A DNA stretch of 32,141 nt, taken from an uncultured Candidatus Saccharibacteria bacterium (GTDB lineage Bacteria; Patescibacteriota; Minisyncoccia; UBA6257; UBA9933). The position numbers and the translations under genes were made by a program. The DNA is taken from contig CAYIEP010000002.1 in NCBI GenBank assembly GCA_964362515.1, positions 1-32,141 on the forward strand, given 5' to 3'. The notes under the pieces are model-generated. The model searched no databases. It was not told where the DNA came from and worked only from the letters and a program-made list of their open reading frames with translations. Shown in pieces: positions 8,701-23,766 of the stretch (positions are counted from its first letter, which is position 1; each line of letters begins with the position of its first letter).

Positions 8701-9065
8701 ACTATTTCTTCCGCCATTGTTACTATTTTCTCAAATCCTTTTTCTTTCAATTCTCTTGGAATCGGACCGAATATTCTCGTGGCTCTCGGCTCTTTCTTGA
8801 CATCCACTAAAACAACCGCGTTTTCATCAAATCTGATGTAAGAACCGTCGAATCTTCTGAAACTCTTGCGCTGTCTTACAAGAACAACTCTTACGATTTC
8901 TTTCTTTTTAACCGTTTTTCGCGGCTCGGCCTCTTGAACAGAGGCGACAAAAATATCGCCGATTCTTGCATATCTTTTTCTTGTAGCGCCTAAAATTCTA
9001 AAACAACGGACGATTTTAGCTCCGCTGTTATCCGCTACTTTTAAAATTGAACGTTCTTGGATCAT
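8697..9065 (-). CDS. rplN: 50S ribosomal protein L14
   Basis: MIQERSILKVADNSGAKIVRCFRILG ... TRIFGPIPRELK. Confidence 0.96.
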   Translation of the reverse strand: MIQERSILKVADNSGAKIVRCFRILGATRKRYARIGDIFVASVQEAEPRKTVKKKEIVRVVLVRQRKSFRRFDGSYIRFDENAVVLVDVKKEPRATRIFGPIPRELKEKGFEKIVTMAEEIV

Positions 9066-9080
9066 TGTTTTTGCCCTGAA

Positions 9081-9311
9081 TTAACTACGCGATACTATTC
9101 TCCATCTTTTTTCTTTTGATAACGGCCTTGTTTCTTCTATGAAAACATTGTCTCCTGTATGATATTCGTTTTTCTCGTCGTGCGCTTTAAATTTCCGAGT
9201 TATTTTATAATATTTTTTATAACGCGGATGTTTTTTTAATCTGATAACCGCGACAACTCGCGTCTTGTCCATTTTGTCTGAAACAATTATTCCTTGTAAT
9301 TTACGCTTCAT
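9081..9311 (-). CDS. rpsQ: 30S ribosomal protein S17
   Basis: [19 protein letters not shown] ... [18 protein letters not shown]. Confidence 0.94.
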
Positions 9312-9506: not shown

Positions 9507-9923
9507 TTACCGAATATTCGAAACTATTCTTGTTTTAACCGGCAATTTATGGCCCGCCCTTCTTAGCGCTTCTCTGGCCAGAGCTTCGTCCAATCCGTCA
9601 ACTTCAAAAAGGATTCTTCCTGTTCTAACCGGAAATACATATCTGTCAACGGCTCCTTTCCCTCCTCCCAGAGTAGTTTCCGGCGGTCTTTTTGTAACGG
9701 GCTTATCGGGAAAAATTCTTATCCAAATCTTCCCTCCCTTTTTGGTAAAATGGGTTATCGCTTTTCTGGCCGCTTCTATTTGTCTCGAATCAATCCAAGC
9801 GTTGCTTGTCGCCTGAATGCCAAAAGTTCCAAAACTCAAAAATATTCCTCTTGTTTCGACTTTGCGGTTTTTCGACCTGCCTTTTTGCCATTTTCTATGT
9901 TTTACTTTTTTCGGTATAAGCAT
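9507..9923 (-). CDS. rplP: 50S ribosomal protein L16
   Basis: MLIPKKVKHRKWQKGR ... IWIRIFPDKPVTKRPPETTLGGGKG. Confidence 0.96.
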   Translation of the reverse strand: MLIPKKVKHRKWQKGRSKNRKVETRGIFLSFGTFGIQATSNAWIDSRQIEAARKAITHFTKKGGKIWIRIFPDKPVTKRPPETTLGGGKGAVDRYVFPVRTGRILFEVDGLDEALAREALRRAGHKLPVKTRIVSNIR

Positions 9924-9931
9924 AACAATTT

Positions 9932-9966
9932 ATGTTTCACGTTTCATGTTTCGTGTTTCGTGTTTC
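9932..9966. repeat. Five tandem heptanucleotide repeats (minus sense GAAACRY) spanning the rpsC 3' end, its stop codon and the rplP upstream spacer
   Basis: The plus strand reads atgtttc acgtttc atgtttc gtgtttc gtgtttc. It encodes the S3 tail HETRNTKHET and the TGA stop at 9937-9939. Confidence 0.85.
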
Positions 9967-10632
9967 ATGATTAAATACTTCTCCTTTGTAAACCCAGACT
10001 TTTACGCCTATTGTTCCATAGGTAGTAAAGGCGGTAACTTGCCCGTAATCAATATCCGCTCTTAATGTTTGAAGCGGCAGTTTCCCTTGTTCTAAGTGTT
10101 CGGTTCTGGCTATTTCCGACCCGCCTAGTCTCCCGGAAACCATAATCTTGGCCCCTTTAATGTTTTTGTTCTGGAGAATCTGGTCAAGGTTTCTTTTCAT
10201 TATTCTTCTAAAGGGAAGTCTTTTTTCCAAATCCCAAGCTATATTCTGAGCGACCACCCTTGCCGAAACATCGTGTCTTTTTACTTCCTCTATGTTTAAA
10301 TTCAAGAAAACCGGCTCGTTTATTTTATTTTCTCTTCTTAATTTTCTAATTTTATTTTCAAGAAGCTTGGTTAAGTCTTCTATCCCTTTTCCGCCTCTTC
10401 CGATAACTAAGCCCGGTCTTGCCACCCTTACGGATATTTTATAATTATTCGCTATTCTATCTATATTAATTTTATCAATGCCCGCAAGCTTAATCTTTTC
10501 TTCTATTAATTTTCTTAATAAAACGCCTTCTTCCAATACATCTTTAAAACGCGATTTCTTTGGAAACCAATTTAGTGACCATCCCTTAGTTATCCCTATT
10601 CTTAATGAATCCGGTCTTATTTTTTGTCCCAT
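9937..10632 (-). CDS. rpsC: 30S ribosomal protein S3
   Basis: MGQKIRPDSLRIGITKGW, KH-domain GLVIGRGGKGIEDL, GAKIMVSGRLGGSEIAR. Confidence 0.96.
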   Translation of the reverse strand: MGQKIRPDSLRIGITKGWSLNWFPKKSRFKDVLEEGVLLRKLIEEKIKLAGIDKINIDRIANNYKISVRVARPGLVIGRGGKGIEDLTKLLENKIRKLRRENKINEPVFLNLNIEEVKRHDVSARVVAQNIAWDLEKRLPFRRIMKRNLDQILQNKNIKGAKIMVSGRLGGSEIARTEHLEQGKLPLQTLRADIDYGQVTAFTTYGTIGVKVWVYKGEVFNHETRNTKHET

Positions 10633-14002: not shown

Positions 14003-14020
14003 TTTTTTTTAAACACGCAA

Positions 14021-14100
14021 AGCCGTATAAGCGGCTACGACGGTGACCTCCAATTTTTTTTAGATTTGTGAGTGCTCGGTTCGTAGCCGCTTATACGGCT
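14021..14100. repeat. Perfect 20-bp inverted repeat with a 40-nt spacer
   Basis: agccgtataagcggctacga (14021-14040) is the exact reverse complement of tcgtagccgcttatacggct (14081-14100). Each arm can also fold alone as AGCCG-6 nt-CGGCU. Confidence 0.9.
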
Positions 14101-14138
14101 CTATTGGTCGTTTATATATTACTTTGAATTACGAAATT

Positions 14139-14229
14139 AGACAAACCCAAAATTCTTTCTGAAATCTTAACGGAAGCGGGCGTAAGCGGTCCGCCGATTG
14201 GCGGAGAAGAAATAATTTCGGGTTTGTCT
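14139..14229 (-). ncRNA. 91-nt long imperfect hairpin with a GC-rich apex (candidate small structured RNA or regulatory stem; family unknown)
   Basis: 14139-14154 pairs with 14214-14229 at 15 of 16 positions. The single A-C mismatch on the plus strand is a U-G pair on the minus strand. The helix continues at 14156-14160/14208-14212. Apical hairpin tccgcc-gatt-ggcgga at 14190-14205. A TTCGCA-16-TATTAT promoter-like pair lies at 14265-14238. Confidence 0.35.
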
Positions 14230-14290
14230 GATAGCTAATAATATATTTGAGTCCGGCTTTGCGAAAGAAATCGTTTCTATTTCTGAAAGT

Positions 14291-18952: not shown

Positions 18953-20338
18953 TTATTGAATTTCTATTTCTATTTTTTCTTCGTTTAACGGCACTTTTTT
19001 AATCCATCTTGGCCAAAAAGAAATAGTCGCTTTTTCTATGTCGGAAACGGAATAAATAATATCTTTTAATTCTCCTTCCTTTTTCCCCGCCACGCTCTTT
19101 TTAAAATCATTGATGTTTATCGACTTTTCAAAAATTCCATAGAAATTAACGGCAAAGGAAATTTGCCCGGCTTTAATGTCCAATCGCGGAGCGCCATATT
19201 CAAGCTTATAGGTTTTTAATTTAAATTCGGACCTGATATTTCCTTCGGCTAATTTTTCAAAAAGATTTTTTATGTCTGATTCTTTAAAAACTATTATTGA
19301 ATATTCCCCTTCCATAAATATTCCGTAATTGCCTTTTTCGTCCGGCGATTGAGAAATTTCTTCTTTAACAACCGTAAATTGTTTCCCGCCGTCGATAATT
19401 TTAAAGTCCCGCGGTATCTGAAGAATTAAAAACGCTTCTATGATTTTTTTTAAGTCTTCGGCCGCGCTTAATCGAGCTTTTTTAATATCTTCTTCCGTCG
19501 GGAAAGATTCCTCGCCGATAAATCCTCCCTTCATCGGTTCTTTGGACTCCGCGTAAAAACCTTGATATTTGGGAGACCCTTCAAATCCCGGAATAGAAAA
19601 TCTTCCGACCGAGCCGATATTGTATTTTTCGCCCGGCTCGTCCGCGGTTATTCCCGCTTCAACGCTCGAAGGAACTATTTTGCCGTCGGTTATTTTCGCT
19701 CCGGGAACTATAAATTCCGCGTTCAAACGAAAAATTTTCCCGTCCGGAGAAGAAAGCCTTGTTCCGACAACCAATTTCTGGATATCGGAGCTGTAAGCGT
19801 TATAAATTATTATTTTCCCGGAAGCTTTTCTTTCAACGTTTCTTTTGCCCGTTGCCTGAAAAGAAAAATTAAAATTCTTTTTTTGGGAAAAAATTTCCGC
19901 CGGAATTTGTTTTGAGGACACGTCTATTTCGCCGGTATTTTTTGAAGCGATTACCGAATCAATATAATTCCATTCATCTTTCTTGGTTATTATTTTTATT
20001 TTTGTTTTAGCCATTAAGGTGGGGATTAAAATGGCCGTCGCTAAAATAAGAGCTAAAATTAAAGAAACTAAAATAAGTTTTTTGTATAATTTCCTGTTTT
20101 TTGCCTTTCTCTCTTTTTTTTCTTTATCCTCTTCTTTAAATTTTTCTATTTCTTTTTCTTCAAATTCTTCAAATTTCCGTTCAAATTCTTTAACTGTCTT
20201 TTCTTCGTTTTTCTCTTTCTTCTCTTTTAAAGATTTAAAAAAAGAGCCGTCCTTGTTCGTGTTGGCTGGCGCGGAATTAGAAGGCGCGGAGGCCGGCCTT
20301 ATTATATCCGTCATTTTTACTTTTTTCTTTTCCTCCAT
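18953..20338 (-). CDS. hypothetical membrane-anchored protein (K/E-rich N-terminus, one TM helix, about 340-aa external domain)
   Basis: 461-aa ORF. Charged low-complexity residues 30-85, hydrophobic segment LILVSLILALILATAILIPTLMA, then a beta-rich-looking domain. From memory it resembles proteins annotated baseplate J-like in CPR genomes; unverified. Confidence 0.6.
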   Translation of the reverse strand: MEEKKKVKMTDIIRPASAPSNSAPANTNKDGSFFKSLKEKKEKNEEKTVKEFERKFEEFEEKEIEKFKEEDKEKKERKAKNRKLYKKLILVSLILALILATAILIPTLMAKTKIKIITKKDEWNYIDSVIASKNTGEIDVSSKQIPAEIFSQKKNFNFSFQATGKRNVERKASGKIIIYNAYSSDIQKLVVGTRLSSPDGKIFRLNAEFIVPGAKITDGKIVPSSVEAGITADEPGEKYNIGSVGRFSIPGFEGSPKYQGFYAESKEPMKGGFIGEESFPTEEDIKKARLSAAEDLKKIIEAFLILQIPRDFKIIDGGKQFTVVKEEISQSPDEKGNYGIFMEGEYSIIVFKESDIKNLFEKLAEGNIRSEFKLKTYKLEYGAPRLDIKAGQISFAVNFYGIFEKSININDFKKSVAGKKEGELKDIIYSVSDIEKATISFWPRWIKKVPLNEEKIEIEIQ

Positions 20339-20409: not shown

Positions 20410-22113
20410 TTATTTAAAAACATCCGCCCTGACTCTTCTTGTTCCGACTCCAACGGCCTCTTCTTTAAGTATCTTAAATTCTCCTATTTCTGAAAGCTTC
20501 TCCACGTGAGGACCGCCGCAGAATTCTTTGCTAAAAGCGTTTTCAATGGATTTCCCCATATAATAAACTTTAACTTTGTCGGGATATTTTTCTTTGAAAA
20601 AATGAAGCGCTCCGGTTTTTTCCGCTTCTTCTTTGGGAAGTTCGATGAAGTTAACGGAGTGGCCTTCTTTTATTTTTTGATTAATCAAAATTTCAATTTT
20701 TTTCTTTTCTTCTTCCGTAAGTTTTCTTGAAAAAGAAAAATCAAAGCGCGTTCTTTCCGATGCGATGTCCGAACCCATTTGTTTTACGTCTTTTCCCAAG
20801 ACTTCTCTTAATGCCCAATGGAGCAAATGGGTGGCCGTATGAAGCCTTGTCACTTTTTTTAATTCTTCTTCATTCGCCGCCCTAAGTTCGCCGGTATTCA
20901 GTATCAGTCCGTGACCGCCGAATTTTTTCTCCGCGCCGGCCCTTGATAATTCTTGATGTTTTTCGAATTCTTTATCAAAAGATTCTCGGGTAAGATTTTT
21001 CGCTTTCTCACCGCTTAAATCTTTAATCGCTTCGTAAGGCAATCCATAACTTTGAAAAATTTTAAACGCCGAAGATGTATCAATAATATCCAACTTATCT
21101 AATTCACGACTACCAATGGCTAGTGTTTTTTCAAAGTTTGATAATTCTTCTTTGAAAACAACAAAAATTTTATTACGATTTAAATTCGGATATATACTTT
21201 TATAAGAATCAATTATCTTGTCTAAAAGAGTATAAAATTCGTTCGAAAAGCCTAATATTTTCACAATATAACGACGAGCAATTCGACGCAGAATATATCC
21301 GGCATTTTTATTGGAAGGCAAAACTCCGTCCGCTGTCAAAAAAACAATAGCGCGAGCATGATCAATAATTACTCTTTTTATTGAATCGGATAAATGTTTT
21401 GGCAAGTAATCGATAAAAGATTTAAATAAATCCGTTTCAAAAATAGTTTTCTTTTTTTGAACTGCCATCGCGAGCCGCTCAAGTCCCATACCCGTATCCA
21501 CGCCCGGATTTTTTACTTTTTCAAATCTTCCGTCTAAATGTTTATAGTATTCGTTAAAAACCAAGTTCCAGATTTCCACGCCATTTACGTATATTTCAGT
21601 TGTCGGTCCGCAAGGACCTTCATTGCCGGTCGGACCCCAAAAATTATCCTCCCGTCCCATTTTTTTTATATTTCCGATTCCCAACGATTTCCAAATCTTT
21701 TCAGAATCGTCGTCGGCCGGAATCTGATTATCTCCTTTAAAAACGCTCACATAGTCAATCGTAAGCTTCATTTCTTTCGTTATAAATTCGTGCGCGTACC
21801 TAATCGTCCCCTCTTTGAAATAGTCGCCGAAAGAAAAATTTCCCAACATTTCGAAAAACGTGAGATGTGATTCGTCTCCCACATTATCAATATCGGACGT
21901 ACGAAACGATTTCTGAATTGAGGCGACATTCTTATTCCCGAAATCCTTCATCGGATCGGCTTTGCCCACGAAATAGGGCTTAAATTGCTGCATTCCGGCG
22001 GTAGTTAAAAGAACGGAGGGATCGTCCGGAATCAAAGATGAAGAGGGAATTATTTTATGGCCTTTTTTCTCAAAAAATTCCAAAAAAGATTTTCTAATTT
22101 GTTCGGAATTCAT
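20410..22113 (-). CDS. alaS: alanine--tRNA ligase, short form (567 aa, ends after the editing domain)
   Basis: MNSEQIRKSFLEFFEKKGHKIIPSSSLIP, TTAGMQQFKPYF, GNFSFGDYFK, DTGMGLERL. Editing motifs HTATHLLHWALREVLG and CGGPHV. Stop shortly after GVGTRRVRA. Confidence 0.93.
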   Translation of the reverse strand: MNSEQIRKSFLEFFEKKGHKIIPSSSLIPDDPSVLLTTAGMQQFKPYFVGKADPMKDFGNKNVASIQKSFRTSDIDNVGDESHLTFFEMLGNFSFGDYFKEGTIRYAHEFITKEMKLTIDYVSVFKGDNQIPADDDSEKIWKSLGIGNIKKMGREDNFWGPTGNEGPCGPTTEIYVNGVEIWNLVFNEYYKHLDGRFEKVKNPGVDTGMGLERLAMAVQKKKTIFETDLFKSFIDYLPKHLSDSIKRVIIDHARAIVFLTADGVLPSNKNAGYILRRIARRYIVKILGFSNEFYTLLDKIIDSYKSIYPNLNRNKIFVVFKEELSNFEKTLAIGSRELDKLDIIDTSSAFKIFQSYGLPYEAIKDLSGEKAKNLTRESFDKEFEKHQELSRAGAEKKFGGHGLILNTGELRAANEEELKKVTRLHTATHLLHWALREVLGKDVKQMGSDIASERTRFDFSFSRKLTEEEKKKIEILINQKIKEGHSVNFIELPKEEAEKTGALHFFKEKYPDKVKVYYMGKSIENAFSKEFCGGPHVEKLSEIGEFKILKEEAVGVGTRRVRADVFK

Positions 22114-22170
22114 TCTCTTAGTTGTAAGATTTCATAGCGTCGTTTACATTTTACAGCAGAAAATCTTTTC

Positions 22171-22357
22171 CCGCCAGCAAGAGAAAAAGATGTTTTTTCA
22201 ATCCGCTCACGGATTTGTTTTTTCAGAACCAGTTTAGCCAGCAAGAAAAAAGATTTTTACTGAAACCTTAATCCGTCAGCTGACGGACAGCCTCGCCATT
22301 TTCGTAAAAATGGCGGGCGTGAGCGGATTGAAGAAAAATCTTTTTTCTTGCTTACGG
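22171..22357. repeat. 187-nt inverted-repeat element: about 40-nt imperfect terminal arms plus an internal third copy of the arm core
   Basis: 22171-22211 pairs with 22318-22357 (a perfect 15-bp core at 22197-22211 with 22318-22332, then an A/T-rich extension with a few mismatches). gcaagaaaaaagattttt at 22241-22258 is the perfect reverse complement of 22334-22351. Internal hairpins lie at 22294-22315 and 22271-22288. Confidence 0.8.
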
Positions 22358-22400
22358 ATATGTCTCCAATAAAGTAAATTGTTTTGAAGAACATCCCGCA

Positions 22401-22455
22401 GTCCCGATTGGCTTGGTTCCCGTTCCGCCAGCTAGCGGAACAGGACAATCGGGAC
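22401..22455 (-). other. GC-rich 55-nt hairpin about 40 nt downstream of the rpoD stop
   Basis: gtcccgattg (22401-22410) pairs with caatcgggac (22446-22455). The inner stem 22418-22428/22435-22445 is continuous only on the minus strand (plus-strand C/A becomes G-U). No canonical U-tract follows. Confidence 0.5.
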
Positions 22456-22497
22456 GAGGGGGAAGAAAATCTTATCGCTGGAATAAAATTATTCCGG

Positions 22498-23766
22498 TTA
22501 GTATTCCCTTAATTGCTTTGCCTTATCGTGCTTTTTCATTTTTTCCAAAGCCTTGGCTTCTATTTGACGGATTCTTTCTCTTGTCACTCCGAATTTATTT
22601 CCCACCTCTTCAAGAGTATGAGTGATTCCGTCCCCTAGACCGAATCTAAGTCTTAAAATTTCCTGTTCTCTGGGAACCAAATCAACTAAAATTTCTTTTA
22701 TTTTATTTTTTAAAAGCGCTTGAGCCGCCATTTGAGAAGGCGTCAAGCTTTTTTCGTCTTTTATGAATTCCGAAAGACTAGTCTCTTCATCGCTGTCTCC
22801 GACCGGCGCTTCCAATGAAATAACTTCTTGAGATATTTTTTGGAGATATCTTATCTTATCAACGGTTGTTCCAATCTCTATCGCTATTTCTTCGGCTAAC
22901 GGCTCTCTCCCTAATTCCTGTAAAAGCTTTCTTTTCATTTGGGTATATTTGGAAATTGTTTCTATCATATGAACCGGAATCCTGATGATTCTCGATTGAT
23001 CGGCTAAGGCCCTTGTAATGGCCTGTCTTATCCACCAAGTGGCGTAAGTTGAAAATTTAAATCCTCTTCTATAATCAAATTTATCAACCGCCCTTGAAAG
23101 ACCGATGTTCCCTTCCTGAATTAGGTCCAAAATATTTAAATGAGGACTGCGATATGCGTATCTTTTTGCTATTGAAACGACAAGTCTTAAGTTTGCCGTA
23201 ATAATTTTATGTCTAGATTTTTCGTCGCCTTTTTCCGCTTTTTTCGCCAAATATTTTTCTTCATCTCCCGTTAAAAGAGAAACCTTGCCTATTTCTTTAA
23301 GATACATTTGGACCGCGTCCGGCAATCCAAGGCCTTTTATTTCTGTCGCTTCTTTTAATTCTTCTTCTGATACCTCAATTTTATCCGGCGAATCAACCAA
23401 TTGGGCCGTTTCAATAATTTTTACCTTGGCGGCGTTTAATTGGCCGTGAATATATTCAAGAAAAGGCGTGTCTTCCTCCGCTTTCGGAAAATAAGAGAAA
23501 ATCTCCAAATCCGTCACATACCCTCTATCCTTGGCGGAACTTATAAGTTCGCCCATAACGCTTTCTTTTTTTTCTTTTTTCGGTTTTTTAACGATCGGCG
23601 AAGCGGATTTTTTTATCACAGAGGCTTTTTTCTTTTTGAGCTTTTTCTTTTTTTTCTTAACAAGCTTTTTTATTTTCCTCTTTTTCTTAATAAGCTTTTT
23701 TGTCTTCTTCTTTTTTTTATGGCGCTTAGCCGCAATATTTTTCTTCTTTTTTCTTTTTTGTTTCAT
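22498..23766 (-). CDS. rpoD: RNA polymerase sigma factor (sigma70/RpoD family) with a poly-lysine N-terminal region
   Basis: Regions 1.2-4.2 recognisable ([69 protein letters not shown]). The first 70 residues are almost all K/R. Confidence 0.93.

Follow-up and report, generated by a model that had tools for sequence, protein, structure and literature searches.

The spacer between rpoD and alaS in a Patescibacteria genome is probably a nested cluster of small palindromic repeats accompanied by a promoter module

Small palindromic repeats have been described in several groups of bacteria. Rickettsia palindromic elements (RPEs) are found in intergenic DNA and also in-frame within unrelated housekeeping genes, whose ORFs read through the insert (PMC10969869). 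The Correia elements of Neisseria (CREE) and other promoter-bearing MITEs lie immediately upstream of genes, provide terminal sigma70-like promoters, and fold into long hairpins in transcripts that read through them (PMC10969869). The pneumococcal BOX, RUP, and SPRITE repeats and the enterobacterial REP/BIME repeats are modular hairpins that cluster in spacers and insert into one another there, often just after gene ends (PMC10969869). Our searches of the available literature returned no descriptions of such elements in Patescibacteria. Here, we describe a spacer from a genome of this group that is probably assembled from repeats of this general kind.

The window, which is the whole stretch of 32,141 nucleotides that we analyzed, corresponds to contig C2 of a 467-kb genome that consists of 47 contigs, has a GC content of 38%, and is rated 99% complete. 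Based on the ORF list and Pfam, the gene order on the minus strand is glmS, dnaG, rpoD, a 384-nt spacer, alaS, and a 461-aa ORF. Pfam confirmed rpoD and alaS as the genes that flank the spacer, as had been claimed in an earlier note on this DNA made from the letters alone, and the spacer limits given there were also correct. The same note saw no credible ORF in the spacer, and we found just two ORFs, of 44 aa and 63 aa, both with TTG starts. The 461-aa ORF downstream of alaS (18953-20338) had no Pfam match. AlaRS is approximately 565 aa long and lacks the C-terminal domain after tRNA_SAD both here and in all 80 relatives retrieved; a short AlaRS is normal for the group of the host. An independent assembly from another sample (L254), which encodes an identical RpoD, has the same spacer architecture with approximately 12 base differences, and the spacer is therefore not an assembly artifact. 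L254 is the sole other contig with an identical RpoD and, having this same architecture, it provides no empty site.

The earlier note had proposed a search for further copies, with multiple dispersed copies as the mark of a mobile repeat. When the spacer was compared with its own genome by blastn, we obtained 101 matches on at least 15 other contigs. Repeat coverage extends from 22118, 4 nt away from the alaS ATG, to 22499, within the rpoD stop codon, and no base in this interval falls outside a module that is repeated elsewhere in the genome. Read in the sense of the genes, a 5'-truncated copy of one element (E) comes right after the rpoD stop codon and is followed by a full copy of a second element (F) in the opposite orientation, an inverted half-copy of F, and a short module, the A box, that abuts the alaS ATG (Table 1). 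On contigs C5 and C30, the order of E, F half-copy, and A box recurs in front of rpsP and a pilM/ftsA-like gene; the two composites are near-identical and the flanking genes are different. On both of these contigs, the left part of the spacer (22118-22220) directly adjoins the right part (22379-22499); therefore, the window carries an extra segment of approximately 150 nt with the full F.

The modules are also nested within each other. In the C30 and C5 composites, E together with its outer stem P0 lies within the apical hairpin of F, and inverted A boxes flank the whole composite. An 18-nt palindrome (C, 13 copies) is located inside stem P1 of E in three copies (C17, C21, and C6) and inside F in four. 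The junction fragment that precedes the full F resembles the 5' start of an oppositely oriented E when compared with E 5' ends. The repeated share of intergenic DNA amounts to approximately 5.7 kb of roughly 36 kb. Some contigs end inside E, F, or A repeats (C26:8034-8154, C7:15199-15246, C40:1-73, and C18:1-69), and the repeats thus fragment the assembly. Ten of the approximately 12 differences between L254 (4270-4652) and the window cluster in the 31-nt linker between E and F (22353-22383); these could be due to gene conversion between repeat copies or to repeat-induced assembly mixing. In one genus of relatives, F is regularly found 40-70 nt after E on the same strand (G044:C18, G045:C9/C2/C1, G043:C79, and G044:C7/C36/C3), a spacing that suggests an E-F composite unit.

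Table 1. Positions of the repeat modules, their parts, and the flanking genes, in window coordinates.
Feature	Position	Strand	Details
rpoD	22498-23766	minus	ORF list and Pfam
rpoD stop codon TAA	22498..22500	minus	within the first positions of element E; ORF list, Pfam, E alignment
Element E, branched palindromic repeat	22383..22509	minus	CM R1 112.9 bits, E-value 4e-30, filters off
E P1 stem	22490-22483 with 22475-22468	minus	loop UCCAGCG at 22482-22476
E linker UCCCCCUCG	22463-22455	minus	
E P2	22454-22446 with 22410-22402	minus	
E P3 hairpin	22445-22418	minus	
E bulge ACCAAGC	22417-22411	minus	
E 3' conserved CUGCGGGAUGUUCUUCAAA	22401-22383	minus	
Linker, displaced 3' flank of E (AAUUUACUUUAUUGGAGACAUAUCC)	22358..22382	minus	same junction on C12 (blastn C12:11941-11978); most L254 differences here
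Element F, full copy	22237..22355	plus	CM R2 131.5 bits
F outer stem	22240-22258 with 22334-22352	plus	19 bp, perfect
F core CUGAAACCUUAA ... GGCGUGAGCGGAUUGAAG		plus	
F internal hairpin C, palindrome AATCCGTCAGCTGACGGA	22269-22288	plus	13 copies in genome
F internal hairpin D	22293-22317	plus	
Junction fragment TTTTTCAGAACCAGTTTAG	22218..22236	plus	recurs on C12 (blastn C12:11994-12033, 92.5%)
F 3' half-copy, inverted relative to full F	22171..22217	minus	at least 13 copies (blastn); inverted repeats; same E, F-half, A order in C30 and C5
A box, putative sigma70-like promoter for alaS	22118..22158	minus	10 copies in genome
A box -35 ATGTAA	22149-22144	minus	
A box 17-nt spacer	22143-22127	minus	
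A box -10 TACAAC	22126-22121	minus	ends 7 nt before alaS ATG (22113-22111)
alaS start codon	22111..22113	minus	ORF list and Pfam
alaS, 567 aa	20410-22113	minus	ORF list and Pfam

Element E is a branched structure of approximately 115 nt in which the loops are conserved and the stems are copy-specific. The window copy lacks the 5' arm of the outer stem P0, because the rpoD stop codon occupies its first positions. P0 spans 15-28 bp and has a different sequence in each copy; the inner parts consist of a GAAC/GUUC pairing, the P1 hairpin with its UCCAGCG loop, and a CCC.CG...C.G.GGG closure around P2/P3 with the ACCAAGC bulge. Independent MFE folds of each copy from this genome and of copies from four other genera resulted in the same architecture. 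RNAalifold on a MAFFT alignment of nine E copies, an analysis that is independent of the covariance model (CM R1) built here, gave 33 pairs, 15 of them compensatory. In two alignments that were fitted to the CM and hence lean towards it, 93.9% of cells were paired among 44 copies (A2; slid controls, 36-52%), with double changes in 29 of 33 pairs and a covariation of 0.72 (controls, at most 0.15), and 94.0% were paired among 22 copies at the class level (A5; 39-45%), with double changes in 30 of 33 pairs and a covariation of 0.85 (at most 0.16). E has a conserved, covarying secondary structure across diverged sequences, and the covariation is very strong.

No Rfam family was found for E. The scan of the locus suggested by the earlier note (cmscan, Rfam 15, E <= 10, positions 21800-22800) yielded only chance miRNA-like matches far below gathering scores, and 13 loci of relatives searched at gathering scores gave only tRNAs and chance matches. 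With CM R1, E was detected in 34 of 51 genomes of the family (26/34 genera), with 0-12 copies per genome. At the class level, it was detected in 36 of 301 genomes that had been sampled evenly (12%). The genome under study has 8-10 copies, every one in the same sense as its flanking genes; 12 of 16 high-scoring intergenic matches and nine of 11 genic matches also show this orientation. From genome to genome, the neighbors of E are non-orthologous genes. In a distant complete genome (L080), positions 1786-1945 hold a complete E directly after rpoD, whose perfect 28-bp outer stem takes in the TAG stop codon of that gene and whose P2 (CCCCGATTG) resembles P2 of the window copy (TCCCGATTG). The presence of E after rpoD in both L080 and the window may reflect shared ancestry or repeated insertion.

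E is not confined to spacers. GC-richer variants were found in relatives inside long ORFs, on the coding strand in nine of 11 cases and with the reading frame open in all 11. Pfam identified the E-bearing ORFs as real genes with domains that the insert interrupts; they encode MnmA, a class-V aminotransferase (IscS-like), ParB, LepA, and a PMT-like membrane protein. We also considered whether low-scoring GC-rich matches were pieces of rRNA or introns, a reading that was rejected since these matches sit in protein genes. The insert in MnmA splits PF03054 at profile positions 131/132, the one in ParB falls in the N-terminal region, and the one in LepA lies between the GTPase domain and domain 2. 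Comparison of LepA and the IscS-like protein with their orthologs in the genome under study, which lack E, revealed clean insertions of approximately 41-49 aa.

The MnmA site, located after GHYVRL, is occupied by E in six genomes (the one under study and five others) from at least three families, with stems that are intact but different. Length differences between orthologous MnmA inserts are multiples of a codon, which suggests that genic E is translated. A conserved E peptide was considered and rejected, as reading frames differ between host genes. Because the insert is read in different frames depending on its host, conservation is at the nucleotide level and there is no family peptide. The mnmA gene of the genome under study (contig C10, approximately 9890-10073, minus strand) has a degenerate E at the same site as the five other genomes, and this copy retains a perfect 16-bp outer stem (GGCGAAGTTTCATCGC / GCGACGAAACTTCGCC) within coding sequence. 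On contig C11 (approximately 8990-9183, minus strand), the gene for a PMT-like protein contains palindrome C (GTCCGTCAGCTGACGGA) and a remodeled insert at the position where the relative L128 has a full E.

The window copy of F is 98% identical to C26:8034-8147 over 115 nt (blastn). The genome has at least seven copies of F in addition to half-copies. We folded 12 copies; those of this genome share an outer stem of 19-23 bp, a core of CUGAAA(U/C)CUUAA...GGCGUGAGCGG(A/G)UUGAAG, and an apical hairpin that varies. In some copies, the outer stem is wholly different in sequence but complementarity is kept. Like E, F is dispersed over sites that are not orthologous. Copies of F are mostly intergenic, occur in either orientation, and sit snugly against gene ends. 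CM R2 detected F in 17 of 51 family genomes (range 0-41 copies), with 41 copies in one genome, 16 in another, and 10 in a third, and the canonical form is clear in relatives. Elsewhere in the window, the gap between rpsJ and rplC contains a long hairpin (14137-14231) that is an F-family copy (R2 42.8 bits, core CTGAAATCTTAACGGAAGCGGGCGTAAGCGG, 20-bp outer stem), and the R2 search also gave a weaker F match at 14013-14108.

The A box has the consensus AAAATGTAAACAACGCTnnGAAATCTTACAAYTAA. Six of its 10 copies are correctly oriented and lie 2-25 nt ahead of a start codon, including those of alaS, rpsP, and the pilM/ftsA-like gene, and a copy in a relative reads TTGTAA-17-TATAAT. An SD-like motif is present within 20 nt of the start in only 29 of 427 genes, and TAnAAT hexamers show a sharp peak 6-8 nt ahead of the start codon (13 lie at 7 nt, in the 166 genes whose upstream region spans 40 nt or more). 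Together, the scarcity of SD-like motifs and the TAnAAT peak imply widespread leaderless mRNAs and suggest that these are the rule in the host organism. The -10 of alaS falls exactly on the genome-wide peak, from which we infer transcription of alaS from the A box without a leader. The alaS mRNA is thus probably leaderless, in which case the helices of the spacer would lie outside of it. A scan with a stricter canonical sigma70 consensus called no promoter in the spacer, the A box included.

The spacer is predicted to fold into a very stable structure, at -150.9 kcal/mol on the minus (gene) strand compared with -92.3 +/- 5.1 for shuffles (z = -11.5) and with z = -8.1 on the plus strand. The helices listed in the earlier note could be recovered. 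The F half-copy pairs with 22318-22357 to form the long-range helix described there for 22171-22211 (36 matches over 41 columns, one gap), and both hairpins that it named are present on the minus strand. Near-palindromes of the form GAAAA..TTTTC are present at 22159, 22183, 22245, and 22333, and a weaker one is found at 22464. The perfect proximal helix also exists, although it has 19 bp and lies one base off the coordinates first assigned to it. The mutually exclusive pairings of 22318-22357 are real as helices, and they exist because the spacer contains three copies of one A/U-rich arm of F, two direct and one inverted. We infer that the alternative helices are a by-product of these three copies and not the switch they had been taken for. 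The F half-copy contains, on the plus strand, a hairpin (22200-22215) with a T run after it, which resembles a terminator. This is the only such site in the spacer; no hairpin with a U-tract that could act as an intrinsic terminator after rpoD was found on the gene strand.

We looked for traces of mobilization. Comparison of the window with C30, C5, and C12, and of filled with unfilled composites, revealed no unambiguous target-site duplication, and no clean empty site could be defined. The search for a mobilizer covered Y1 and TnpB. PF01797 (Y1/RAYT) had no match in the genome while positive controls matched, and the only TnpB domain match was a sub-threshold one, to the zinc ribbon, in a 404-aa ORF on C4. 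We also examined a viral origin. A degenerate E pattern matched 73 IMG/VR contigs, none of which scored with the CM, and these pattern matches were therefore attributed to chance.

We favor, at a probability of about 0.7, the explanation that the spacer is a nested cluster of small non-autonomous hairpin repeats from families E and F, with the promoter module A traveling along. E and F would have spread as selfish palindromic DNA of the Rickettsia-palindromic-element or MITE type through a mobilizer that acts in trans. In read-through RNA from rpoD, the compound hairpin would then probably be only a stable 3' structure, and the A-box promoter would give a leaderless alaS mRNA, with none of the structure in an alaS leader. 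Selfish spread is favored by the dispersal of many copies, the variation in copy number, the near-identity of copies at unrelated loci, the nesting, and the absence of genic inserts from orthologs. The lack of a mobilizing enzyme in the Y1 and TnpB searches, of E in viral contigs, and of a target duplication, as well as the copy-specific outer stems, the strong sense bias of E, and the long-kept structure at the MnmA site, sit poorly with it or are left unexplained by it. Of the three readings offered by the earlier note (an alaS leader or operator, a stable small RNA, and a MITE-like insertion), the last is nearest to this evidence and largely holds, yet it is incomplete.

The sense bias of E, its shared site in MnmA, and its position after rpoD in L080 fit selection for a function at the level of RNA or single-stranded DNA. 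An alternative that we regard as possible, if clearly less probable, is that selection maintains E, and perhaps F, primarily for a function as a structured RNA or single-stranded-DNA signal, with dispersal being secondary. E could be a protein-binding, processing, or stabilizing module that acts after stop codons and is tolerated in coding regions, with the copy after rpoD serving 3'-end formation or stability of the rpoD mRNA. Consistent with this, the unpaired motifs UCCAGCG, CUCUCG/CCCCUCG, ACCAAGC, and CUNCGNGA are conserved and every stem covaries across the class; G.U pairs fall on the gene-sense strand; and intergenic copies have the orientation of the gene before them and begin 15-60 nt past its stop codon. 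Moreover, at least three families have E at the MnmA site with an intact structure, the copy in this genome keeping its perfect outer stem within coding sequence, and E comes after rpoD in the window and in L080, with the stop codon forming part of the outer stem in L080. However, E is patchy (12% of class genomes, 0-12 copies per genome), its positions are non-orthologous, and duplicates within a genome are near-identical and nested. The window copy, besides, lacks half of the outer stem, E is absent after rpoD in most relatives with rpoD near alaS, and the hairpins have no U-tract after them on the gene strand. It seems doubtful to us that E is a class-wide structured RNA or single-stranded-DNA module under purifying selection even in coding sequences, with the copy after rpoD as a working 3' signal. 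If this were true, E would represent a previously unknown functional motif; for example, a conserved factor of Patescibacteria might recognize or process it, or it might be a catalytic or intervening element that has gone unrecognized. Besides mnmA, it is also found in the gene for the IscS-like sulfur donor.

Improbable by comparison is a spacer that encodes one or more independent small RNA genes with their own promoter between rpoD and alaS. The very stable fold would suit such genes, and the earlier note's stable small RNA is reflected at most loosely, in that E is a conserved, covarying structure. Yet E is multi-copy, abuts stop codons, and also occurs inside coding sequences; in relatives, its copies lie in ORFs or start 15-20 nt after stops. 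We found no sigma70-like promoter in the spacer besides the A box and no terminator on the gene strand, and because E abuts the rpoD stop codon there is no room for a promoter of its own.

In E. coli, alaS is autorepressed at a palindrome, and aminoacyl-tRNA synthetase genes are known to have T-box leaders. The conservation check that the earlier note had proposed was run on 80 alaS loci of relatives. A subset has rpoD adjacent to alaS, with spacers of approximately 3 nt (L040, L066), 24, 45, or 75 nt and up to kilobases. CMs R1 and R2 detected neither E nor F upstream of alaS in any of the 80 loci. An alaS-specific leader or operator (a riboswitch, an attenuator, a T-box-like element, or a palindrome for AlaRS autorepression) that uses the exclusive helices as a switch, a reading that the position directly upstream of alaS and the two pairings of 22318-22357 favor, is largely refuted and is the least probable one, given that every module is multi-copy and next to unrelated genes, that neither a T-box nor any other Rfam family matched even at E <= 10, that relatives have spacers of 3-75 nt or other genes there without E or F, and that the -10 of the A box ends 7 nt short of the ATG, as in the leaderless pattern seen across the genome.

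The genomes of Patescibacteria (CPR) are among the smallest and most streamlined known, yet the intergenic DNA described here is colonized by two structured repeat families. E and F break assemblies and carry promoters, and in relatives essential proteins such as MnmA, the IscS-like protein, ParB, and LepA gain approximately 40 residues. CMs R1 and R2 can flag repeats that might otherwise be mistaken for riboswitches or small-RNA genes elsewhere, as in the gap between rpsJ and rplC. In addition, the conservation of E structure in place makes the function of "selfish" palindromes a testable question.

With respect to the closest known systems, the locus shows likenesses and differences to each. 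To the E. coli alaS palindrome and T-box leaders, the sole likeness is a position upstream of alaS together with dyad symmetry; there is no T-box match and no conservation in relatives, and the palindromes are multi-copy here. We also considered TIGR-Tas arrays and rejected them, as E and F are dispersed single units and not tandem arrays. E and F resemble MITEs in being small (<500 nt), non-coding, multi-copy, and dispersed over more than 15 contigs. Classical MITEs have conserved terminal inverted repeats, whereas the outer stems here are perfect inverted repeats that are copy-specific, and only short inner sequences are shared, GAAC/GUUC in E and CUGA/GAAG in F. Promoter-bearing elements of the Correia type have a counterpart in the A box, which is located at the composite end, 2-9 nt from start codons. 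However, terminal inverted repeats that are conserved and duplications of a TA target are features of Correia elements, and neither could be defined here; A boxes form inverted pairs only in some composites (C5, C30, and C8). The spacer is a mosaic of the same kind as those of BOX/RUP/SPRITE and REP/BIME repeats. The genome differs from REP/BIME systems in having no RAYT (Y1) gene, and E and F are larger and branched, with conserved internal loops.

The likeness to RPEs is one of description; the phylum is unrelated, and the sequences are presumably so too. In both cases, palindromic repeats of approximately 100-150 nt are dispersed in the very small genome of a host-dependent bacterium and have no associated transposase, here on the basis of the Y1 and TnpB searches. 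E keeps approximately 35 unpaired nucleotides and copy-specific stems, including the outer one, and it has no family peptide; the window copy is intergenic and truncated. These features set it apart from RPEs. As with RPEs, E is found in-frame in unrelated genes (those encoding MnmA, the IscS-like protein, ParB, LepA, and the PMT-like protein) as well as in spacers, and the ORFs are continuous. In this, E behaves like Rickettsia palindromic elements, to which the two repeat families provide an independent parallel.
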